Shown one piece after another: positions 38,487 through 55,877 of a DNA stretch of 55,877 nucleotides. This stretch comes from a virus. The notes under the pieces were generated by a model that searched no databases, was not told where the DNA came from, and worked only from the letters and a program-made list of their open reading frames with translations. Position numbers and translations under genes: made by a program. The stretch's first letter is position 1. Every line of letters begins with the position of its first letter. The stretch lies in the IMG/VR virus record IMGVR_UViG_3300045988_101944, one strand, 5' to 3'.

Positions 38487-38921
38487 TTAATTTTTTTTAA
38501 TAAATCTCTGAAAAGCCATTTTTACACTGCTTTCAGAATTACCCCCGATAATGTGTGCTATTTGAATCCAAGTCTTATTCTCTAAGAATCTAAGATTGAT
38601 AATTCTTCTCATCCTGCTATCATCAATGCTTGAAATAAACTGTTCAACCTCATTGGTTTTTTCCAACAAATCATCTTCAAGCAACTGCAATGTGGCTTTT
38701 CTAGCATAAAGAAGTGTTTTCTTTCTACTGTACTCTGGAAATGGTATGCCCTCAATCTTAAAATGCTGTTTGCCACCATTGCCGCCGCTAACAGAATCTA
38801 TAACCCTTTCTCCGGCTTCGATTTTACTTATATCTTTTTCAAGTCGTTCTATCTTTAGCCTTACTTCTTTTACTTCTTCCTGTAAGTCTGAATATTGTGA
38901 CAAAACTTCCTTTGTTACCAT
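38487..38921 (-). CDS. Sigma-70 region-4-like DNA-binding protein
   Basis: 144 aa. The C terminus RRIINLRFLENKTWIQIAHIIGGNSESSVKMAFQRFIKK follows an N-terminal coiled coil. Confidence 0.4.
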   Translation of the reverse strand: MVTKEVLSQYSDLQEEVKEVRLKIERLEKDISKIEAGERVIDSVSGGNGGKQHFKIEGIPFPEYSRKKTLLYARKATLQLLEDDLLEKTNEVEQFISSIDDSRMRRIINLRFLENKTWIQIAHIIGGNSESSVKMAFQRFIKKN

Positions 38922-38934
38922 AAATATCCTCCTC

Positions 38935-40659
38935 TTATATTGGACTTGACATAATTACTGTCTTTTTTATTCTGTTTCCTTTTGTCATTCTTAATGCAAA
39001 GTTTGAAAAAACATCCGGTACATCATCTAATTGTTTTTTACCTGACACCGAATATTGCTTTAATAATGACATCATTACTCCATATGGCTCGTTAGGCTTA
39101 TAAAGTGAGGGGTCTTTAAAAATAATGTGCTGTAATATCCAGTTAGAACATTGGAATATCCTTGCTTCCTTATTTGTTTCCGTTGGGGTGTCAGTGATGT
39201 TACATATCCATCCGACACTCTCAACACGCTTATTAACTTCCATTGCAACTCTGTCTCCACCGGCATTACGCTCAAATTCACATTCCTGTACTTTATTATT
39301 TACAAGCACGCCCGCTGCGTTCCTGTATTGGGCTTCATAGTCCGCTGTATTATCACACACGCAATCAACACAATAATAATCATCCCCATACTTTTGAAGA
39401 ATCGGTAATACAAAATAATCCGTTCCTTTTCCTTTTGTATCACATTGCCCTGTAATAATCTCCGGTTCTCCGTGTGGCAAATTAAGGTATCTGCGTATTT
39501 TATCATCAGGAAACAATAATCCCTCACGCTCAATGGGTTCTTGTTTATACAAACATCTATAAGAGATTTCATCCATCAAAAGTTGTTGGTCTGCAAAGAA
39601 CTCTTTTGTAAAGCCCCCATATTCGTAATTAAAATTGCTTTCTCCTGTAACCGGGTCAACATCCGGTACTGCAATCACTTTAACCCTCGGATTTTCCTCA
39701 TACATATTTTGTATTCTTCCAATAACATCATGTACCGACCACCTAGTAGCAATGTGTATCTCCTTACACGGCTTTCCGTCCGTGTCTTGCGTCTTACGCT
39801 GTCTTGCGTCTACTGCATACTTATTCCATAGTTTATCAAGAATAACTGGATTTAAGGCTTCCTCAATACCGCCTATCATATCATCTACAAGTAAAAATTT
39901 ACTCGCACGAACTTTACCAGCATTTTTACTTCCTACAGATGTGCATTGTACGCTTGGAAACGGTTTATATTTCCCTATGTTAAACTGTTCCATCTTTGCA
40001 TTTGTGCTTGTTACTGAAAGTTTTGGAAATATTTCATGCCATGCATATTCCTCGTCATTTGTCACAATGTCGTAAACGCCATCATAATACATTCGTGTAA
40101 TATCACCGCTATGCGAATAAAACAAGCTATAATCTTTCGGAAACCAACCGGCTATACCGGAGTGAAAAAACTTTTCAACCGTACTTTTCCCAGCCCCCGG
40201 CACTAAGCTGACACACAAAATATCGTATTTATCATCAATCATGCCTTGCAATGCATCAATAAGCCCAATTTTTACTAATTGCTTTCTTCGTGGCATATAA
40301 AATCTGTCTTTAGGCTCTCTTTTTCTCTCTATGTACTGAAAATAACTGTCTACAATTTTGTTTTGAGCTTCATATAATGTTGGTTTATAATATTTATCAA
40401 TTAAATCATACTCAACTTTATTCTCAAACGCATACTTTTCCAATTTCCATATTGTGCCGCCTGTTTTTTTCATGCAAAAACGCTCTACAAAGTCCTTAGA
40501 ACGCTTTGTAAGTTGCAATCCATACTGAATATCCTTTTCTGTATTTATTGCCACTCCTGCCGCTTCTATGTATGCATCAATAACATTTTCATCTATTCCA
40601 TTTTTCTCTATGTAATTTTCATAACTTTGAACTGTTTCTTTAAGATATTTAGATGCCAA
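38935..40659 (-). CDS. Terminase large subunit
   Basis: 574 aa with Walker A VPGAGKST, Walker B LLVDD and a C-terminal nuclease-size domain. Confidence 0.85.
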   Translation of the reverse strand: MASKYLKETVQSYENYIEKNGIDENVIDAYIEAAGVAINTEKDIQYGLQLTKRSKDFVERFCMKKTGGTIWKLEKYAFENKVEYDLIDKYYKPTLYEAQNKIVDSYFQYIERKREPKDRFYMPRRKQLVKIGLIDALQGMIDDKYDILCVSLVPGAGKSTVEKFFHSGIAGWFPKDYSLFYSHSGDITRMYYDGVYDIVTNDEEYAWHEIFPKLSVTSTNAKMEQFNIGKYKPFPSVQCTSVGSKNAGKVRASKFLLVDDMIGGIEEALNPVILDKLWNKYAVDARQRKTQDTDGKPCKEIHIATRWSVHDVIGRIQNMYEENPRVKVIAVPDVDPVTGESNFNYEYGGFTKEFFADQQLLMDEISYRCLYKQEPIEREGLLFPDDKIRRYLNLPHGEPEIITGQCDTKGKGTDYFVLPILQKYGDDYYCVDCVCDNTADYEAQYRNAAGVLVNNKVQECEFERNAGGDRVAMEVNKRVESVGWICNITDTPTETNKEARIFQCSNWILQHIIFKDPSLYKPNEPYGVMMSLLKQYSVSGKKQLDDVPDVFSNFALRMTKGNRIKKTVIMSSPI

Positions 40660-40758
40660 AAAAGAAGCACCTCGCTTTCTAGCAAAGGTGCTTATAGACC
40701 TCTGCCTATAATTGTTTTAGGGTAGCGACTAACTCCGTTTGTTAGCCGGTAATTGTTT

Positions 40759-41967
40759 TTATTCGTTTGCTTTGAAATTGTAAATCGGTTTAATAATGTC
40801 AACTATTTCAACAGTATCTTTTATATTTCCAATTATTTCATCCATTGTTTTATATGCCATAGGGCTTTCATCAATCGTAGATGTATTTACGGATGTTGTA
40901 AATATTCCATCCATTGCTTTTTGATACTCTTCTAGCAAAATGCTTTCTTTTGCTTTTGACCTGCTCATTGTTCGCCCTGCTCCATGCGGTGCTGAATAAT
41001 TCCAATCTTCATTTCCTTTGCCAATTCCCAAAATGCAACCGTCACGCATGTTTATCGGTATTAGTACCTTTTCGCCTGTTTTTGCAGAAATAGCACCTTT
41101 ACGAACAATATTTGTATCGTGTTCAATGTAGTTGTGAATTGTTTGAAATCGTTCTGTTTCTTTTGTAACTTTCCAACCCATATAGTAACAAATAATGCTC
41201 TGAATGGCTCTTCTGTTAATTTCCGCAAACTCTTGACATAATTTCATATCGTGCAAATACATTTCTCTATGTTTTCCAACAAGATATGATAACTCTCTAG
41301 GGATTTTAGTTGTATTTGCTTCGTAGGACTGCTTTAATTCTTTGATAGCCTTGCTGATTTCTCTTTCTCTTTTACATTTTTTGTATTCAGCAATCAATTT
41401 CTCACTATCTTGTTTAAAATTCGATTTTCCCGATATATCATCAATCGCCATTTGCTGATATATTTCTGCAACTTGCTTTCCGACATTTCTACTTCCCGAA
41501 TGAATAACAAGATATTTATTATTCTTGCTATCGCTATCAACTTCGATAAAATGATTGCCGCCTCCCAACGTGCCGCAACTCCTTTTCAGCCAATCTATAT
41601 TTTTCAACTGTTCCTTGCAATACAATTTTTCAATAATATCGCTTGCGACAGACGAGTTTTCTTCTCCATGAACTTTTCTACCGCTTGGAACATATTCTCT
41701 AATGATGTTATCCAATCTCTCAAAATCAATATCAATATTCCCCAAGTTTGTAGTAAGCATCCCACAGCCTATGTCAACTCCAACAATGTTCGGTATTACT
41801 TTTTCTCCTAAATCAGCAGTAAACCCGATAACACACCCTGCTCCTGCATGAACATCTGGCATAATTCTTATCTTACAATCCGAAAATGCTGGCTGTTTAA
41901 CAAGCGTATATATCTGATTTAACGCTTCCTGTTCTATATTTTCTGTAAATATTTTCAAATCAGCCAT
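40759..41967 (-). CDS. rtcB: RtcB RNA 3'-phosphate/2',3'-cyclic-phosphate to 5'-OH ligase
   Basis: 402 aa with the RtcB motifs MPDVHAGAG, GVDIGCGM, GGGNHFIE, HSGSRNVG and SAPHGAGR. Confidence 0.9.
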   Translation of the reverse strand: MADLKIFTENIEQEALNQIYTLVKQPAFSDCKIRIMPDVHAGAGCVIGFTADLGEKVIPNIVGVDIGCGMLTTNLGNIDIDFERLDNIIREYVPSGRKVHGEENSSVASDIIEKLYCKEQLKNIDWLKRSCGTLGGGNHFIEVDSDSKNNKYLVIHSGSRNVGKQVAEIYQQMAIDDISGKSNFKQDSEKLIAEYKKCKREREISKAIKELKQSYEANTTKIPRELSYLVGKHREMYLHDMKLCQEFAEINRRAIQSIICYYMGWKVTKETERFQTIHNYIEHDTNIVRKGAISAKTGEKVLIPINMRDGCILGIGKGNEDWNYSAPHGAGRTMSRSKAKESILLEEYQKAMDGIFTTSVNTSTIDESPMAYKTMDEIIGNIKDTVEIVDIIKPIYNFKANE

Positions 41968-41992
41968 GATACGTTCCCCTTTCCGCTGATAA

Positions 41993-42457
41993 TCAGCAAT
42001 TTATTTTAATGCCCTCTGTTAATATGGCGGTTTTTTCCTCATTCAGAATTGTATTTCCGTTTTCATCCGTTTTATGCCATCGTGCATTAACTTTAATCAT
42101 TGGGCTTTGGTTTGAATGACTGATAAAATGTAACTCCATGTCCGTACATCTTACTTTTTCACCGTCAATAAATATTTGTGCGGTTTTGCCATCGGATATT
42201 ATCTTGATTTTTTCTTTTGTAACTTCAATAGGCTCGCATTTGTACATGGATTTCCATGAATCTTCATGCCACTTATCTATTTCATCAATAACAGCACTCG
42301 CATAATAAGTCGGTTTGCTCATTGTTTTCGTTCGGCTACACAATACTTCTTGATAGTTTTTGATAATAAATTCGCAATCATCGCCGTTATACTCATAATC
42401 TTTATAAAACTGATAAAACGATTTTAGATTTTTAATAAATCTAATCAGTGTTTTCAT
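41993..42457 (-). CDS. Hypothetical protein
   Basis: 154 aa track ORF. Confidence 0.5.
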   Translation of the reverse strand: MKTLIRFIKNLKSFYQFYKDYEYNGDDCEFIIKNYQEVLCSRTKTMSKPTYYASAVIDEIDKWHEDSWKSMYKCEPIEVTKEKIKIISDGKTAQIFIDGEKVRCTDMELHFISHSNQSPMIKVNARWHKTDENGNTILNEEKTAILTEGIKINC

Positions 42458-42463
42458 TTCTAT

Positions 42464-42643
42464 TCACCCCTTAAAGCAATCTCTCAACGCTTGCCTGTCT
42501 GCTTCATTATCTGCCACAATAACTGGTTCATCTTCTAAAATGGAACAATCTATAGGCTCACCGTTTCTACCACCTATTTTATGTGGCTGTATCTCTCTAA
42601 ACGCTCCACATTCTATTGATTTAATTACATCTGCCATGCTCAT
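42464..42643 (-). CDS. Small hypothetical ORF (59 aa)
   Basis: Own translation MSMADVIKSIECGAFREIQPHKIGGRNGEP...; it fills an otherwise empty gap. Confidence 0.35.
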   Translation of the reverse strand: MSMADVIKSIECGAFREIQPHKIGGRNGEPIDCSILEDEPVIVADNEADRQALRDCFKG

Positions 42644-42654
42644 TTTTAAAACTC

Positions 42655-42873
42655 CTATTCTGCCAACAACTTATGCAGTTCCAACGCTTCATCATCTTTG
42701 ATAAGTTTTCTGATATAGGGTTTTCCGTTATAGTTCTCAAATACCATTGCTAACGGTCGGTCTCCTGTTTCCAAGCCTAAATCAAACGCAACTGACATTA
42801 CTTCTTCGCCAGCTTTTTCAACTCTAGCTTTTGGAATTATCACATTTTCAGGCATTTTAAATATTTTACTCAT
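42655..42873 (-). CDS. Hypothetical protein
   Basis: 72 aa track ORF. Confidence 0.4.
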   Translation of the reverse strand: MSKIFKMPENVIIPKARVEKAGEEVMSVAFDLGLETGDRPLAMVFENYNGKPYIRKLIKDDEALELHKLLAE

Positions 42874-42890
42874 TCTTCCACCTCGCCAAA

Positions 42891-43163
42891 CTATTTATGA
42901 TTCTTCCACCAAAACAAAATTTTTTCACGTGGGATAGCATATGTACTGTGCATAAATTCTTCTGAACCCTCATAAACAATTACGGAGTTAAAATCAATGC
43001 GGTCTTTAAATAGTTCACAGTTTTTTGCAACTTTATCCATGGCATATACTATTGCCTCATCATAAGTCTTAAACCATTTTTCTGCTGCACCATATGCAAG
43101 AGGGCAAGTTCCGCTCTCGTCAAATACGATATATCCGTCTTTACTTTGTGTTAATTCATTCAT
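42891..43163 (-). CDS. Hypothetical protein
   Basis: 90 aa track ORF. Confidence 0.4.
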   Translation of the reverse strand: MNELTQSKDGYIVFDESGTCPLAYGAAEKWFKTYDEAIVYAMDKVAKNCELFKDRIDFNSVIVYEGSEEFMHSTYAIPREKILFWWKNHK

Positions 43164-43573
43164 TTTTCCACCTTTCTATACGGATTAAAAAATTCTTTGT
43201 CCTGTCCGATTCCAAGATGTTCTCTCAACGCAAAATTAGTTATCTGCTCTCGATTAAAAGAATTTCTGACAATATAATTTGCTAAATCCCCATCTTTCCA
43301 TCTGTCCGTACCTGTCATAGAATCATAAATCTGTTTATATTCTCCGGTCAGCTTGCCAAATTCAAACCATCCCAAGTCAAGTGTTACTCCGTAATCATAA
43401 AATCCCTTGTCGCACCACTTTCTGACATAATACATTAACTGCTTGTATGAGAACCCAAGCCTTTCAAAAATATTTCCAATAGTTCTTATGCTCAATTCAC
43501 GGTCGCTCGAACGCAATTTTCTTTTCTGCTCATTCACGCAAGCTCTAAAAAATATTTCTTCTAATGGCTTCAT
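43160..43573 (-). CDS. Hypothetical protein
   Basis: 137 aa track ORF. Confidence 0.45.
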   Translation of the reverse strand: MKPLEEIFFRACVNEQKRKLRSSDRELSIRTIGNIFERLGFSYKQLMYYVRKWCDKGFYDYGVTLDLGWFEFGKLTGEYKQIYDSMTGTDRWKDGDLANYIVRNSFNREQITNFALREHLGIGQDKEFFNPYRKVEK

Positions 43574-43833
43574 TCTTTCACCAGCTTTCTACCACAGATA
43601 GGGCAAAACACAATCTCAAAATATCCTCTCGCTATTCCATTCTTGCCCCAAATAATGATTGACGGATTATCTTCGCCATGAAGATATACTTGGCAATCTT
43701 TCAAATCCGTTTCTGTTGCGCATTTATTGATTGCAATTTCTTTTCCCGTTATCATTCCTTTTTGTGAATGATATTTGTCACAAAATTCACACATACTTAG
43801 TCCTCGCTCAGTTTTTTGCCACACATAGGGCAA
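43570..43833 (-). CDS. Zinc-ribbon protein
   Basis: 87 aa with CEFC...CPIC. Confidence 0.45.
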   Translation of the reverse strand: MPYVWQKTERGLSMCEFCDKYHSQKGMITGKEIAINKCATETDLKDCQVYLHGEDNPSIIIWGKNGIARGYFEIVFCPICGRKLVKE

Positions 43834-44027
43834 TAAGATATTTGCTTTTTTAATGTTGTAAGATTAAAGTAATCTAATAAGTGATTAGAAACTATTTCAA
43901 ACATCAATTCATTGCCTTTTATTGTAGCTTGAAAAACTTGTATTTTCTCGTTCATTATGCCGTCTTGTTCTACATTTAAAATTATAGGTTTAGCTTTATT
44001 ATTGCAAAACTTACACATATTCATCAT
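43797..44027 (-). CDS. Zinc-ribbon protein
   Basis: 76 aa with CKFC...CPMC. Confidence 0.45.
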   Translation of the reverse strand: MMNMCKFCNNKAKPIILNVEQDGIMNEKIQVFQATIKGNELMFEIVSNHLLDYFNLTTLKKQISYCPMCGKKLSED

Positions 44028-44506
44028 TCCTTTTTGTTGTATTTACAATACACAAGCAAATGCTCCGCAATCTGTTCTAACTCGTCAATTCCATACTTAC
44101 TGCTTTCAGTTTTTCTCCCTGTAAACGAAATACTGTGTTCATATGTTTCATTGATGAGCATATCGACAACTTCTAGTGGGTCAAACGGCAACTCTTTGTT
44201 TTCGTTTTTCTTATTTTCACATTTTTCCAAGTCATATTTTAATTGTTTGTTGTAGTTACTTAAATCACTGCATTTTTTCTTCCAGCACTCGATTTCATCT
44301 ATAAACTTTTTGTCATGCTCCGTAAAATCAAGTTTATCAAAAACAATCTCTAATAAGCCTCCAGTCATAATGCTCTGTTCACATTCTGAACAATGTACCG
44401 TCACTCCGTTTTCTTTTAATAATTTACCAATAGTGTTTGTAAACTCCATAGCCATCTCTTTATCTTTTATGTCAGTTATTTTTCTTGTTAATTCTTCAAA
44501 ATCCAT
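44024..44506 (-). CDS. Hypothetical protein
   Basis: 160 aa track ORF. Confidence 0.45.
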   Translation of the reverse strand: MDFEELTRKITDIKDKEMAMEFTNTIGKLLKENGVTVHCSECEQSIMTGGLLEIVFDKLDFTEHDKKFIDEIECWKKKCSDLSNYNKQLKYDLEKCENKKNENKELPFDPLEVVDMLINETYEHSISFTGRKTESSKYGIDELEQIAEHLLVYCKYNKKE

Positions 44507-44517
44507 TACCTACTACC

Positions 44518-45036
44518 TCACTGTTTATATTCTTTGATAATCTGTGAAATCCGCCCCTGTGAGCACCCCATTTCATCAGCAATCTTTGCTTGCGACCATT
44601 TGGCATTATGTAAAGCCATTACCTTGCCTACATCAATAGAACTCTTTTCCACTGATGTTTTATTAGAAGTATCTGTTTCTTCATTTTCGTTCTCGTTATC
44701 TTCTCCAAAAACTTCGGTATATTCATCCCGAACCTGTTCTTCAAATGCCTTTTGATTTGCGTTATCTTTCTCTCTGTCCAGTTCCATCGTTGTCATAACA
44801 CAATATCCAGCAAGGTCTAGCAGCGTATCTCTTATAGTTTCGTCAGCAACTTTCTGTTCTGCTCCTAATGCCATATTATCAAGTCTGTTCCATTTATCTT
44901 CCATGCGAACCATAGCCGCTACTAATCCATATTTCTTAAATGAACGACTAAAGCTATCGCCGTAATCGTGATTTTTCTTGACATATGTATCATGTATCTG
45001 TTGTAAAAGTATTTTGTGTTGTTCCAAATTATCCAT
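44518..45036 (-). CDS. DUF1599-like (nucleotide-modification-associated) domain fused to a C-terminal HTH
   Basis: N terminus KKNHDYGDSF...MVRMEDKWNRL...DLAGYCVM. C terminus WSQAKIADEMGCSQGRISQIIKEY. Confidence 0.5.
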   Translation of the reverse strand: MDNLEQHKILLQQIHDTYVKKNHDYGDSFSRSFKKYGLVAAMVRMEDKWNRLDNMALGAEQKVADETIRDTLLDLAGYCVMTTMELDREKDNANQKAFEEQVRDEYTEVFGEDNENENEETDTSNKTSVEKSSIDVGKVMALHNAKWSQAKIADEMGCSQGRISQIIKEYKQ

Positions 45037-45093
45037 ATTTCTTACCTCTCACTTAAATTATTAAATCACCTATGAACTCACAGTTGTCGTAAA

Positions 45094-45203
45094 ATAGTTG
45101 CCGTGGGAGTCGAACCCACCCGACCCAAACAATGCTCGACTGCTTTTGAATCTGCAAATTCTACTTGCAGAAGTGTTTTTCGTTGACCGATAATGAGCAA
45201 CTA
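45094..45203 (-). ncRNA. 109-nt tRNA-like gene with an 8-bp acceptor plus 5-bp T stem (tRNA-Sec/allo-tRNA-like geometry) and non-standard internal arms
   Basis: Folded by eye. Acceptor TAGTTGCT/GGCAACTA; D-position TTATCG-GTCAA-CGAAAA; hairpin TCTGCAA-GTAGAAT-TTGCAGA; extra arm AAGCAG-TCGAGCA-TTGTTT; T arm GTGGG-TTCGACT-CCCAC. Confidence 0.45.
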
Positions 45204-45271
45204 CTATCCATACATCTCCCATCGACCGGAACTATTGCAGTAGTGCCCGACCAAGTGGAGATAAAGATAAG

Positions 45272-45339
45272 CACGCCCGGAAAGCATCGAACTTTCGTTA
45301 GAGGTTTTGGAGACCTCATTCTGGCCAACAGACAGACGC
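45272..45339 (-). tRNA. tRNA-Trp(CCA) with a reduced D arm
   Basis: Anticodon arm GAGGT-CTCCAAA-ACCTC; T arm GAAAG-TTCGATG-CTTTC; acceptor GCGTCTG/CGGGCGT (3 G.U pairs); D arm only CTG-TTGGC-CAG. Total 68 nt. Confidence 0.55.
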
Positions 45340-45371
45340 ATATAAAGTTTTCACGATAGTTTTGAGGATAA

Positions 45372-45500
45372 GTAGATAGGTGTGGATTTGCACCACACAG
45401 GAAAGACTTACTTTCTCATAATGTCCCCTGAGAAATACTTTCTCTGTATTGCGTTTTGCAATAGACATTTCATAGCGTTTACCTATTCCGCCACTATCTA
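45372..45500 (-). ncRNA. 129-nt tRNA-like gene whose anticodon domain is replaced by a roughly 75-nt multi-hairpin insert
   Basis: Acceptor TAGATAG/CTATCTA; D arm GCG-GAATAGGTAAA-CGC; T arm GTGTGG-TGCAAAT-CCACAC (G at T-loop position 2). The insert has the closing stem AATGTC/GACATT, with hairpins TATTGC-AAAAC-GCAATA and GAGAAA-GTA-TTTCTC inside it and GAAAG-TAAGT-CTTTC 3' of it. Confidence 0.45.
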
Positions 45501-45584
45501 CCACCCGCGTCGTAACTAGTATTTTTGCGTAGGCATATTATTTGGTTATTCAATATGCCGTCAGTAAACAACAGCATATTGCCA

Positions 45585-45664
45585 TCGGATAGACAGGGCT
45601 CGAACCTGTGACTCCCTCCGCTACCATTACCGCAGTGGGTTTCTCCCAACTGAACTACTATCCG
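45585..45664 (-). ncRNA. 80-nt tRNA-like gene with an anticodon arm 7 nt too long (7-bp stem, 10-nt loop)
   Basis: Acceptor CGGATAG/CTATCCG (perfect); D arm GTTC-AGTTGGGA-GAAAC; T arm ACAGG-TTCGAGC-CCTGT; anticodon region CCACTGC-GGTAATGGTA-GCGGAGG. No 5-bp/7-nt solution exists in any register. Confidence 0.5.
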
Positions 45665-45860
45665 TTATATAGTTTAATTAGCTGCTAAAACAGGTTTCTC
45701 AACTCACAGCATTGCATATCCCCACTACGAACATTGATATGCGTTCCCACTCGAATTGATGTGGTGTGGATTTGAACCGCACATAGCAATCACTTTGCAA
45801 CAGGTAACACCCATACAGGTTTCTTTGCCGACATTGTTTTCTGCACAAGTGTTGACATAA

Positions 45861-45943
45861 CGCAGACACAAGGATTTGAACCTTGACAGCATTTCTGCTG
45901 GATAGCTTAGCAAGCTACTGTGATACCATTACACCATATCTGC
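45861..45943 (-). tRNA. tRNA-Ser(GCU), type II
   Basis: Acceptor GCAGATA/TGTCTGC; anticodon arm GTAGC-TTGCTAA-GCTAT; variable arm AGCA-GAAA-TGCT; T arm CAAGG-TTCAAAT-CCTTG; discriminator G. Confidence 0.85.
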
Positions 45944-46135
45944 ATAACTGGTCAGTTTCCGTTTTTACTTACTCCACACTGCCCTAAGTGTAAGGTTCTT
46001 TTAGTCAGCGGTTAACGCTATCTTTTGAATAACAACCGCTCAATTCAGTTCCCTGTGCTAAGTTTAACCGGTATATTGATTAGCACCTGCATTTCTATAA
46101 TAAACGCACTAGGAGTGTACTGACAACATCACCAA

Positions 46136-46207
46136 CTGGCATAGCAGGTATCGAACCTACGACCCACAGATTAACAATCTGTTGCTCTACCACTGAGCTA
46201 TATACCA
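46136..46207 (-). tRNA. tRNA-Asn(GUU)
   Basis: TGGTATA-TA-GCTC-AGTGGTA-GAGC-A-ACAGA-TTGTTAA-TCTGT-GGGTC-GTAGG-TTCGATA-CCTGC-TATGCCA-G forms a canonical cloverleaf. Confidence 0.9.
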
Positions 46208-46461
46208 AAATTGCATACACCTCTGTATAGGCTTTTAAGATGGTATGCAAGCACCTGTGTGTTATGGGGGTGTGAAATTTGTAATGGAACTACATTAGTC
46301 CAGTACGGAAAAAGTATGTAAGTTCGGGCATCGTGGGATAGACACCCGAACAACCACACCGAGCCGTGCGATGGCTCTTAACAGCATTCCGCTAGTGTGG
46401 GAAAGGAGTTTTTCTCCGCGATTTTGCAAGAAGAAAAACAAAGATGGCATATCTTGCCAAA

Positions 46462-46533
46462 CTGGGGTAATGGGATTTGAACCCATGATGTAGCAGTCAA
46501 AGTGCTATGCCTTAACCTCTTGGCGATACCCCA
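46462..46533 (-). tRNA. tRNA-Gln(UUG)
   Basis: TGGGGTA-TC-GCC-AAGAGGTTAA-GGC-A-TAGCA-CTTTGAC-TGCTA-CATC-ATGGG-TTCAAAT-CCCAT-TACCCCA-G, with the U1-A72 pair typical of bacterial tRNA-Gln. Confidence 0.9.
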
Positions 46534-46690
46534 TTATTCCGCAAGACTGTTATTGCCTTGCGGATGTGATATGTAATATTTTTATGAAGTACAAAAGATA
46601 TGAATTAAAATACAAATATTAAACAAGTTTCAAAAAATGTTTCACTTTAAATTGTTGGTGCTCTTATTGCCATACTTTATCACCTCAGTT

Positions 46691-47068
46691 CTATTTATTA
46701 TCTTCATATAATCGGGCATATTCCCAAGCCACACAGACAGAGTCTCTCGCACTCCATGAAGTTGAGCCATTAGCCCATGCGAAAACTTTTCCATTTTCAT
46801 ATTTTGCAAAATGTCCATGTATCCATTTTGGTGCCAGTTCGTCTTTTACAAGAATCGGAGTATCGACAGGTACTTTTGACCAATCTGTTTTATATTCTTC
46901 ATCAAGCCACTGTTTTGCAAGTGTTTTGCAAGCTATTCCGTTATGAGAAAACTGGCATTGTTCACTACAGGATGCAGGGCACTGAAAAGGCTTATTTTTT
47001 TCATCCACTCCAAAACTGCTTAAAAAGATACTGTATAAATCTTCCGCATACTTTTCTTTGTTTGTCAT
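46691..47068 (-). CDS. Hypothetical protein
   Basis: Start moved to the ATG at 47068 (MTNKEKYAEDLY...). 125 aa. Confidence 0.5.
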   Translation of the reverse strand: MTNKEKYAEDLYSIFLSSFGVDEKNKPFQCPASCSEQCQFSHNGIACKTLAKQWLDEEYKTDWSKVPVDTPILVKDELAPKWIHGHFAKYENGKVFAWANGSTSWSARDSVCVAWEYARLYEDNK

Positions 47069-47650: not shown

Positions 47651-48322
47651 CTATATCTTGTTGTTCTTATCCTCAACAGCCGCTACATGTCGTGGTGCTG
47701 TGTCATGTCGTGGTGCTGTGTCAAGTCTTGGAAGCTCTGCTGCTGTCTTTTGTTCGACTTGCTGTACATGAAGCTTGCCGTCTTCTCGCCAACCCTTTTT
47801 ATGATTGAGTGCTGCGAGTGCTCCGGTCGGGTTTCTGAGTGAGAACGCTTTAGACATCAAAGCCTCTTCCTCACTATCATAAAGATTTTGCAAAAACTCT
47901 GAACCCGCTTTACTTAGTACACTACTATCTTTCTTCCACCTGCATATAGTATCTACTGTAATACCTGTCATATATATAAATCCTTGTTGAGTAGGTATTT
48001 TATCATATAGCATACACTCATATATATATATATCGCATATACGTTTTACTTTCTCTAAGTCATATGCATTACAGTTACTCTTATTAAGATTGCTATGCTC
48101 GTTGTCATAGTTGTTGTTTATATAACCCTCTGGTGGTGTAGTCATTTTTAACATTTTATTATTTTTAAATACATGCTTTTGAATGTACATCAATGCAGAA
48201 CTCCACACGTTTTGCGGTTCGCTTCTCATGTCTTTTATGCCCTGCTCTTCAAGAAAAAGCTGTAAATATTTATCTACATCATTTTCAAAAACATCTATGT
48301 TTTGCTCTACATCCTTTACCAT
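47651..48322 (-). CDS. Terminase small subunit (putative)
   Basis: Start at the ATG at 48322 after GGAGGTGAG. The pattern IPTQQGFIYMTGITVDTICRWKKD...EEALMSKAF..RNPTGALAALNHKKGW resembles small terminases. It is adjacent to the HNH gene and the repeat array. Confidence 0.55.
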   Translation of the reverse strand: MVKDVEQNIDVFENDVDKYLQLFLEEQGIKDMRSEPQNVWSSALMYIQKHVFKNNKMLKMTTPPEGYINNNYDNEHSNLNKSNCNAYDLEKVKRICDIYIYECMLYDKIPTQQGFIYMTGITVDTICRWKKDSSVLSKAGSEFLQNLYDSEEEALMSKAFSLRNPTGALAALNHKKGWREDGKLHVQQVEQKTAAELPRLDTAPRHDTAPRHVAAVEDKNNKI

Positions 48323-48514
48323 CTTCTCACCTCCAGTATTGTTATATAAATAAAAAAGCACCTGAAAAAGATATTATACATGGCATATACGCTATATATG
48401 TTCATATCTCTCAAGTGCAATTCTGCTAAATATTTAATTTATGCATCTACTATACAGCTAAATACAACTACTGTCAATACCCTAAATATATTTTTTTGCT
48501 TTATATATAATCTA

Positions 48515-55663: not shown

Positions 55664-55877
55664 CTAAAAATTCTTTAACTGTATTTCAATATCTCCATTG
55701 ACTATAACAATCTTATCAATTATACTTTTAAGTATAATATTTTTATCTTTTTTGTCGATGCTGTCCCAAACATCGGCAATTTTTTTTATGTTTTTATAAG
55801 TAACGCTTTTCTTCCTATTTAAATTGGTATTCGACCTTTCAGTTTCAAGCTGTTCTTTTAAACTTTTGATAGTATTG
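55664..55877 (-). CDS. Large serine recombinase, C-terminal part (continuation of 1..1247 across the circular junction)
   Basis: The frame is continuous on the circle: ...RKKSVTYKNIKKIADVWDSIDKKDKNIILKSIIDKIVIVNGDIEIQLKNF, ending at the stop at 55664-55666. 1247 + 115 unique nt = 1362 nt = 454 codons. Confidence 0.85.
   Translation of the reverse strand, partial: NTIKSLKEQLETERSNTNLNRKKSVTYKNIKKIADVWDSIDKKDKNIILKSIIDKIVIVNGDIEIQLKNF

Follow-up and report, generated by a model that had tools for sequence, protein, structure and literature searches.

The viral record IMGVR_UViG_3300045988_101944 of IMG/VR (55,877 nucleotides, analyzed in full and referred to below as the window) contains a gene, rtcB, that encodes a protein of 402 residues of the RtcB family of 3'-phosphate/5'-OH RNA ligases and that lies next to the gene of the large terminase, TerL (Table 1). 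The protein matched the RtcB profile PF01139 over residues 30-399 (model positions 12-425 of 426) with a score of 196.8 bits (E = 9.8e-58). Since the curated cut-off of this profile is 27 bits, the match is not due to chance. The protein also matched phrog_1075, 'tRNA splicing ligase' (residues 3-402 against profile positions 65-443 of 459, E = 3.5e-128), and BLASTP aligned it end to end with RtcB of E. coli K-12 (30% identity, E = 2e-46), while solved RtcB structures were matched by sequence over segments only (E = 1e-9 to 1e-11). A first-pass annotation made from the sequence alone had identified the gene by the four motifs MPDVHAGAG, GGGNHFIE, HSGSR, and HGAGR, and all four could be located.

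In the E. coli enzyme, Asp75, Cys78, and His168 are found at Mn2 and Cys78, His185, and His281 at Mn1, while Arg189 contacts the 5'-OH strand and His337 forms the covalent His-GMP (PMC8051266). All of these residues were matched in the phage protein (Asp65, Cys68, His139, His156, Arg160, His278, and His328), the segment SAPHGAGR around His328 being aligned to SCSHGAGR around His337. The catalytic residues were intact across about 90 RtcB variants. Compared with E. coli RtcB, the phage protein has an additional segment of ~36 residues (173-208) after HSGSR. As judged from its sequence, the product is an RtcB-type ligase with an intact active site and with predicted activity. Given this conservation of residues, its chemistry is presumably that established for the E. 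coli and Pyrococcus enzymes, with formation of His-GMP and of RNA(3')pp(5')G followed by attack of the 5'-OH end. RtcB2, a paralogue that forms a module with PrfH, likewise acts on RNase damage, mending 16S rRNA cleaved by colicin E3. We could rule out that the phage protein is of this PrfH-coupled type, because its score with TIGR03073 (release_rtcB) was 88.8 bits, below the equivalog cut-off of 271.8 (as was also the case for E. coli RtcB1), and no release-factor-like gene (prfH) was present in the whole-genome Pfam tables.

The first 99 nucleotides of the window are repeated at its end (1-99 and 55778-55877), and an open reading frame (ORF) of ~450 residues encoding a large serine recombinase extends across the junction. 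The window therefore represents a complete circular genome of ~55.8 kb (36% G+C), the terminal duplication being an assembly leftover. It was identical to contigs of the human gut metagenome ERR589785. Precomputed Pfam tables of all called genes indicated the content of a temperate siphovirus, with a CI-like repressor, pRha antirepressors, a DUF3799 gene, replication proteins, an HNH endonuclease, a tRNA island, and a protein with DUF1599 and helix-turn-helix (HTH) domains, then eight small ORFs without family, followed in this order by RtcB, TerL, an SPP1-type portal, capsid, tape measure, tail fibre, and amidase. The large serine recombinase, together with the CI-like repressor and the pRha antirepressors, indicates that the phage is temperate. 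TerL starts 99 nucleotides downstream of the rtcB stop codon, and the rtcB start lies 3.1 kb downstream of the end of the nearest element of the tRNA island, in agreement with the placement given in the first-pass annotation (immediately upstream of TerL and ~3 kb downstream of the island).

Table 1. Features of the rtcB locus and of the tRNA island (positions in the window)
Feature	Position	Strand	Basis and remarks
TerL, large terminase	38935..40659	-	phrog_38 (E = 6.9e-37) and Terminase RNaseH-like Pfam domains; the variable slot lies upstream of this conserved anchor
3' edge of the cassette, with the 99-nt spacer to TerL	40660..40773	-	RtcB-less relatives are again homologous from 40753-40773 on
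rtcB coding sequence, 402 aa	40759..41967	-	ATG start, ORF list; 3'-phosphate/5'-OH RNA ligase family
HGAGR, residues 328-332	40972..40986	-	Alignment; His328 = E. coli His337 (covalent His-GMP), Arg332 = Arg341
IHNY, residues 277-280	41128..41139	-	Alignment; His278 = E. coli His281 (Mn1 ligand)
HSGSR, residues 156-160	41488..41502	-	Alignment; His156 = E. coli His185 (Mn1 ligand), Arg160 = Arg189 (5'-OH strand contact)
GGGNHFIE, residues 135-142	41542..41565	-	Alignment; Asn138, His139 = E. coli Asn167, His168 (Mn2 ligand)
VGVDIGCGM, residues 62-70	41758..41784	-	BLASTP alignment; Asp65, Cys68 = E. coli Asp75, Cys78 (binuclear Mn site)
MPDVHAGAG, residues 36-44	41836..41862	-	Aligns with MPDVHLGKG of E. 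coli RtcB
5' edge of the cassette, including the ribosome-binding site (GGAAAGGGGAACGTATC before ATG)	41968..42010	-	Homology breakpoint of L167 and sequence
tRNA island: tRNA-Gln, tRNA-Asn, tRNA-Ser, an aberrant tRNA, two tRNA-like RNAs	45093..46533	-	ARAGORN, Rfam, alignments
Structured RNA of ~175 nt: hairpin 45208-45268, then acceptor stem, T arm, and a long arm of 60 nt	45093-45270	-	Alignments
tRNA-like RNA: acceptor, D, variable, and T arms	45379-45496	-	Alignments
Aberrant tRNA	45584-45664	-	Rfam tRNA model, 35.6 bits; 16-nt 'loop'

Comparison with related contigs showed that rtcB by itself forms an accessory cassette in an abundant lineage of ~56-kb temperate gut siphoviruses, and this is what is new here. 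A close relative of TerL was found in at least 586 IMG/VR contigs and a close relative of RtcB in at least 201. Among the best 80 of the at least 586 TerL loci, 74 could be evaluated, as they comprised at least 2 kb upstream of TerL. RtcB was carried by 9 of these 74 relatives (TerL 85-99% identical) and was absent upstream of TerL in relatives with a 97-99% identical TerL (L165, L166, L169, L170, and L172-L174). The converse was observed with L003/L223, in which RtcB was 99% identical and TerL merely 86%. A degenerate 32-mer of rtcB, which recognizes close variants only, matched 94 IMG/VR contigs; with it, rtcB was found elsewhere in none of 10 near-complete contigs of RtcB-less relatives among the matches listed. 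In pairwise alignments, the upstream breakpoint was at about 42010 or at about 42464-42491. The former was observed with L167, which carries RtcB, lacks the gene at 41993-42457, and is homologous to the window over 42010..38900, this upstream gene being skipped. In other genomes the slot was filled by unrelated small ORFs. These clean breakpoints indicate that the unit comprises the rtcB ORF and a ribosome-binding site of its own. The ratio of nonsynonymous to synonymous substitution rates (dN/dS) of rtcB against its relatives was 0.04-0.14, which shows that the gene is kept by selection where it is present.

The interval between the tRNA island and TerL consists of a hypervariable set of small ORFs, RtcB being one of many interchangeable occupants; one alternative occupant in L165 has an HExxH metalloprotease-like motif. 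Several of the small ORFs at 41993-45036, and of those in the equivalent slots of L165-L244, contain CxxC pairs of the zinc-ribbon type. The nine small ORFs of the window at 41993-45036 gave no credible match to a defence protein or a nuclease in Pfam, PHROGs, NCBIfam, and PADLOC, which are family scans and do not reach fold-level remote homology. The only matches were DUF1599 plus HTH and weak, zinc-ribbon-like ones, and the first-pass annotation, in which this region had yielded no recognizable endonuclease, Pnkp, or Rnl, therefore holds in these four collections. Pnkp and ATP-dependent RNA ligases were not detected near rtcB by Pfam, PHROGs, and NCBIfam, and the precomputed Pfam tables of the whole genome contained no RtcA, archease, Pnkp, ATP-dependent RNA ligase (Rnl), TROVE/Ro60, PrfH, or tRNA-intron endonuclease. 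We considered the gene at 41993-42457 as a partner of RtcB, for example an archease, and rejected it: it had no family match, was absent from L167, which carries RtcB, and was present in L176, which does not. A scan for promoters and terminators around rtcB gave counts within the shuffled expectation. This includes a weak hairpin followed by a T-run in the spacer between rtcB and TerL (40687-40670), a terminator-like match that was not above this expectation. Upstream of the tRNA island, a protein of 236 residues with an HTH-like segment (47651-48361, minus strand) is conserved in nearly all relatives and may be the small terminase. If so, tRNAs, small ORFs, and RtcB, accessory cargo of ~7 kb in all, would lie between the small and large terminase genes.

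Three tRNAs of the island, tRNA-Gln(UUG), tRNA-Asn(GUU), and tRNA-Ser(GCU), were called by both ARAGORN and Rfam. The aberrant tRNA (45584-45664) has an 8-bp stem and a 10-nucleotide loop at the position of the anticodon arm. ARAGORN reported it as tRNA-Leu(taa) or, with the intron option, as tRNA-Thr(ggt) with a 5-nucleotide 'intron'. Among near-identical phages, at least four versions of its body were observed, with a 7-nucleotide loop containing UUA or UCA or with one of two 16-nucleotide variants, one of which is found in the window. The UUA version has an ochre suppressor anticodon (TTA; L006-L008, L056, and L081) and the UCA version an opal one (TCA; L051 and L052). Compared with these suppressor relatives with a normal loop, the entire anticodon arm of the window's element is exchanged, with no interruption, while the acceptor, D, and T arms are the same. 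TerL was intact under the standard code in all relatives, and the suppressors are therefore without obvious link to recoding. In the second element (45379-45496), two hairpins (38 nucleotides) take the place of the loop on the anticodon stem AUGUC/GACAU, and the acceptor and T stems apparently comprise 8 and 6 bp. In one diverged variant (L170), compensatory changes preserve the D stem and the first hairpin. In several relatives, an element of this type is directly followed, 5 nucleotides downstream, by the hairpin of the ~175-nucleotide RNA.

The third element (45093-45270) comprises a GG-containing linker, and its 60-nucleotide arm ends in a conserved loop of 23 nucleotides (GAUUAGAAAUUGCAGAUUUGAAA in most variants). 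In 21 distinct variants, 98.3% of the cells of the alignment pair, and changes on both sides were observed in 19 of 51 pairs, as compared with 4.9 ± 1.8 pairs in shuffles (0 of 500 reached 19) and 3-7 in slid controls. No call was made for this element by ARAGORN or Rfam, and no homologue was found in 50,697 phage records. These results confirm the tRNA-like genes as real, with at least one conserved structured RNA (45093-45270) among them. A sequence at 45745-45790 (minus strand) corresponds to the 3' half (T arm and 3' strand of the acceptor) of an element of the 45379-45496 type, without the 5' half, and is probably a recombination remnant in a mosaic island. Other aberrant tRNAs were called in relatives, 'Arg(acg)' of 89 nucleotides in L021, L029, and L064 and 'Ile(tat)' of 90 nucleotides in L021 and L072, with extended anticodon stems and loops of ~17 nucleotides (e.g. 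AAAUCUA-17 nt-UAGAUUU). Oversized anticodon arms are thus recurrent in the tRNA island of this lineage.

We also considered other identities for these RNAs. We rejected a Y-RNA-like (YrlA) nature since an acceptor stem brings the 5' and 3' ends together, no Ro60 gene is present, and no Rfam match to such RNAs was found in the window. Theta ribozymes, which resemble those of hepatitis delta virus (HDV) and leave ends of the RtcB type, have been described next to tRNAs in gut phages (PMC10879173). Rfam gave no known self-cleaving ribozyme, either at the gathering threshold over the whole window or with E<=1 over 44900-46800, where only tRNAs were matched; no search with dedicated descriptors was made. 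The hairpin at 45208-45268 was inspected by eye and did not fit an HDV-like double pseudoknot.

In a tblastn search, RtcB homologues were found in 681 of the 50,697 phage records (about 1.3%), including phages of Mycobacterium (221), Bacillus (63), and Listeria (58), and most were annotated as tRNA-splicing ligase or RtcB. The best match was Dulem virus 39, from lemur faeces (74% identical), whose RtcB is likewise encoded between four tRNAs upstream and the terminase downstream. This protein, those of the Bacillus phages Deep Blue, Hoody T, and Bcp1, and those of cluster K mycobacteriophages belong to PHROG 1075 and are of the same family over the full length; unlike these, the RtcB of the window is found in an uncultured temperate gut siphovirus and is shown to be a cassette that is present or absent. 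In three records, MT835481.1, LC785692.1 (Bacillus phage CM1), and MZ501265.1 (Bacillus phage 278BB001), rtcB is split into two pieces by insertions of ~1 kb, one of which is annotated as an HTH homing endonuclease.

A search among cellular genomes (one per GTDB species) gave as best matches metagenome-assembled genomes labelled Lachnospiraceae (79% and 78%), Acetatifactor (78%), and Blautia (66%), and the host is probably a member of the Lachnospiraceae. In four prophage-like loci of this family (L084, L085, L086, and L114), RtcB was located 0.2-2.1 kb upstream of TerL, with tRNAs nearby. As TerL in these loci was merely 28-41% identical to that of the window, a position of RtcB close to the terminase is found repeatedly among diverged prophage-like loci of Lachnospiraceae. 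The 79% identical copy (L083) was found in a non-phage context, among Fic and AAA-ATPase genes and without a terminase. More distant chromosomal homologues in Clostridium and relatives (L127, L098, L124, L097, and L113; 57-61% identical) were flanked by TROVE (Ro60/Rsr) and WYL/WCX genes, and in the one locus that was scanned (L127) a LigT-like 2H phosphoesterase was encoded further upstream of this set. The set is conserved, corresponds to a classical cassette for RNA repair, and is a Firmicutes counterpart of the Salmonella rsr-rtcBA operon (compare rsr-yrlBA-rtcBA), with WYL regulators replacing RtcR, and it holds the closest operon-borne cellular RtcBs that we found. Unlike these operons, the phage has the ligase alone, with no TROVE protein, 2H phosphoesterase, or WYL regulator. 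It also differs from E. coli, where rtcBA is under the control of RtcR, by the lack of both the RtcA cyclase and this regulator.

The role that we favor for the phage enzyme is to reseal RNA cut by host ribonucleases during infection, and we hold this explanation with a little more confidence than doubt. RtcB would join 2',3'-cyclic phosphate or 3'-phosphate RNA ends to 5'-OH ends, with GTP and Mn2+. Its substrate would be tRNA, rRNA, or mRNA cut in the course of infection by metal-independent host ribonucleases, the candidates being anticodon nucleases, HEPN or toxin RNases, and CRISPR-associated RNases. Resealing might keep translation going and so allow late gene expression; the substrate, the timing, and the benefit against defence are those that we infer. 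Repair is supported by the intact active site, the low dN/dS, the accessory status of the gene, and the presence of its nearest Clostridium relatives in the RNA-repair operons described above. More generally, the fact that the gene is optional, mobile, and under purifying selection in a hypervariable region fits cargo that serves host range or counter-defence, and the accessory pattern points in this direction. The neighboring tRNA island is itself hypervariable in the anticodon arms, and changes in the anticodon loops of phage tRNAs have been proposed to evade host tRNases (PMC10264068).

The first-pass annotation had proposed such a counter-defence, by analogy with Pnkp and Rnl1 of phage T4, which act on tRNA-Lys cleaved by PrrC. 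The proposal is plausible and agrees with an optional cassette that is under purifying selection in a hypervariable region, but it is still an interpretation and had already been published as an expectation: in a comparative study of jumbo phages, the RtcB and Rnl ligases of phages are said to 'ligate cleaved tRNAs', probably repairing cuts by different RNase effectors (PMC7824862). What the two systems would share is the logic: a host RNase produces 2',3'-cyclic phosphate and 5'-OH ends, and a phage enzyme undoes the cut. There is no relation between the proteins, and T4 heals the ends before an ATP-dependent sealing, while RtcB seals directly with GTP. With both Pnkp and Rnl undetected in the phage, the likeness is functional only.

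Several observations weigh against a repair function. No trigger or nuclease is encoded near rtcB, and most close relatives do without the gene. The presence of RtcB was uncorrelated with the tRNA repertoire, so that a role directed at tRNA is not favored over repair of rRNA or mRNA. The copy found in a non-phage context in a Lachnospiraceae genome suggests that the host may already supply RtcB activity. Finally, our literature search gave genome announcements that name a phage RtcB and no experiment on such an enzyme.

In archaea and metazoa, RtcB serves as the ligase of tRNA splicing, and the first-pass annotation had also suggested that the phage enzyme matures the tRNA-like genes. In this explanation, RtcB would join the halves of the non-canonical RNAs after some nuclease has removed the insertions of their anticodon arms. 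It is encouraged by the reality of these genes, one of which is recognized by the Rfam tRNA model while the other two have tRNA-like acceptor and T arms, with marked covariation in the third. However, the same genes were 91-100% identical in many close relatives without RtcB upstream of TerL, as observed, for example, for the first element (45584-45664) in L172, L198, L202, L230, and L234, for the second (45379-45496) in L174, L177, L179-L182, L187, L189, and L190, and for the third (45093-45270) in L169. In de-duplicated genomes, the mean tRNA count was 3.45 with RtcB (n = 60) and 3.62 without it (n = 53), and the frequencies of two aberrant forms were equal in the two groups (7 versus 8% and 15 versus 13%). 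Furthermore, the genome encodes no splicing endonuclease of a recognized family, the insertions do not, by inspection, look like bulge-helix-bulge introns, and the anticodon arm of the first element is wholly replaced rather than interrupted. The phage therefore shares with the archaeal and metazoan systems (EndA/TSEN plus RtcB) the family of the ligase, while the endonuclease and the bulge-helix-bulge were not seen and its tRNA-like genes are independent of its RtcB. With no endonuclease gene and no known ribozyme, maturation is without positive support, and in RtcB-less phages it would need both a host RtcB and a host nuclease. As a host RtcB could substitute, the suggestion is weakened rather than refuted, and we regard it as improbable. 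We give still less credit to the specific version in which RtcB ligates or circularizes the RNAs of 45584-45664, 45379-45496, and 45093-45270 after a cut by a host nuclease or an unrecognized phage one, the RtcB-less relatives using the RtcB of their host; if true, this would be the first protein-dependent pathway of tRNA-type splicing or processing in a bacterial virus. None of the tests that we ran coupled the tRNA island functionally to RtcB.

The most serious alternative to repair during infection is lysogenic conversion, in which the RtcB of the prophage would protect the lysogen from RNase toxins of competitors (colicin-like, contact-dependent, or type VI tRNases and rRNases) or from stress-induced toxin-antitoxin RNases, to the benefit of the host and not of lytic growth. 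The phage is temperate, as indicated by its recombinase, repressor, and antirepressors, and a one-gene cassette with its own ribosome-binding site is moron-like. The 79% identical gene sits in a bacterial island with Fic and AAA-ATPase genes, and the related bacterial RtcB2 is reported to rescue cells from colicin E3 (PMC9304027, PMC13166195). On the other hand, rtcB is remote from the lysogeny module, is co-oriented with the small-ORF block and the late packaging genes between which it lies, and has no convincing promoter or terminator of its own in our scan. We consider this explanation rather unlikely. That rtcB is a neutral passenger, a host gene recently captured and without role in the phage, would be in keeping with its optional presence and with its 78-79% identity to genes of Lachnospiraceae-family genomes, but is very doubtful in view of the purifying selection, the intact catalytic residues, the occurrence of the gene on at least 201 IMG/VR contigs and of homologues in 681 phage records, and the recurrence of its position upstream of diverged terminases. 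Least credible is a function on DNA ends tied to packaging. The gene adjoins TerL, and RtcB can in vitro cap DNA 3'-phosphate ends and ligate 5'-OH DNA (PMC8051266); yet relatives with a nearly identical TerL package their DNA without RtcB, and other phage families, such as those of Bacillus, carry RtcB far from their packaging genes.

The phage RtcB is of a known kind, and the counter-defence role that we infer for it is the standard one. With RtcB in about 1.3% of phage records and a presumed repair role that is textbook-level speculation, the gene itself adds little. The conserved, covarying tRNA-like RNAs and the suppressor-tRNA variants of the island deserve a separate study, independently of RtcB. 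The near-isogenic genomes with and without RtcB, with their clean cassette edges, represent a natural series with which the idea that a phage RtcB serves counter-defence becomes directly testable.

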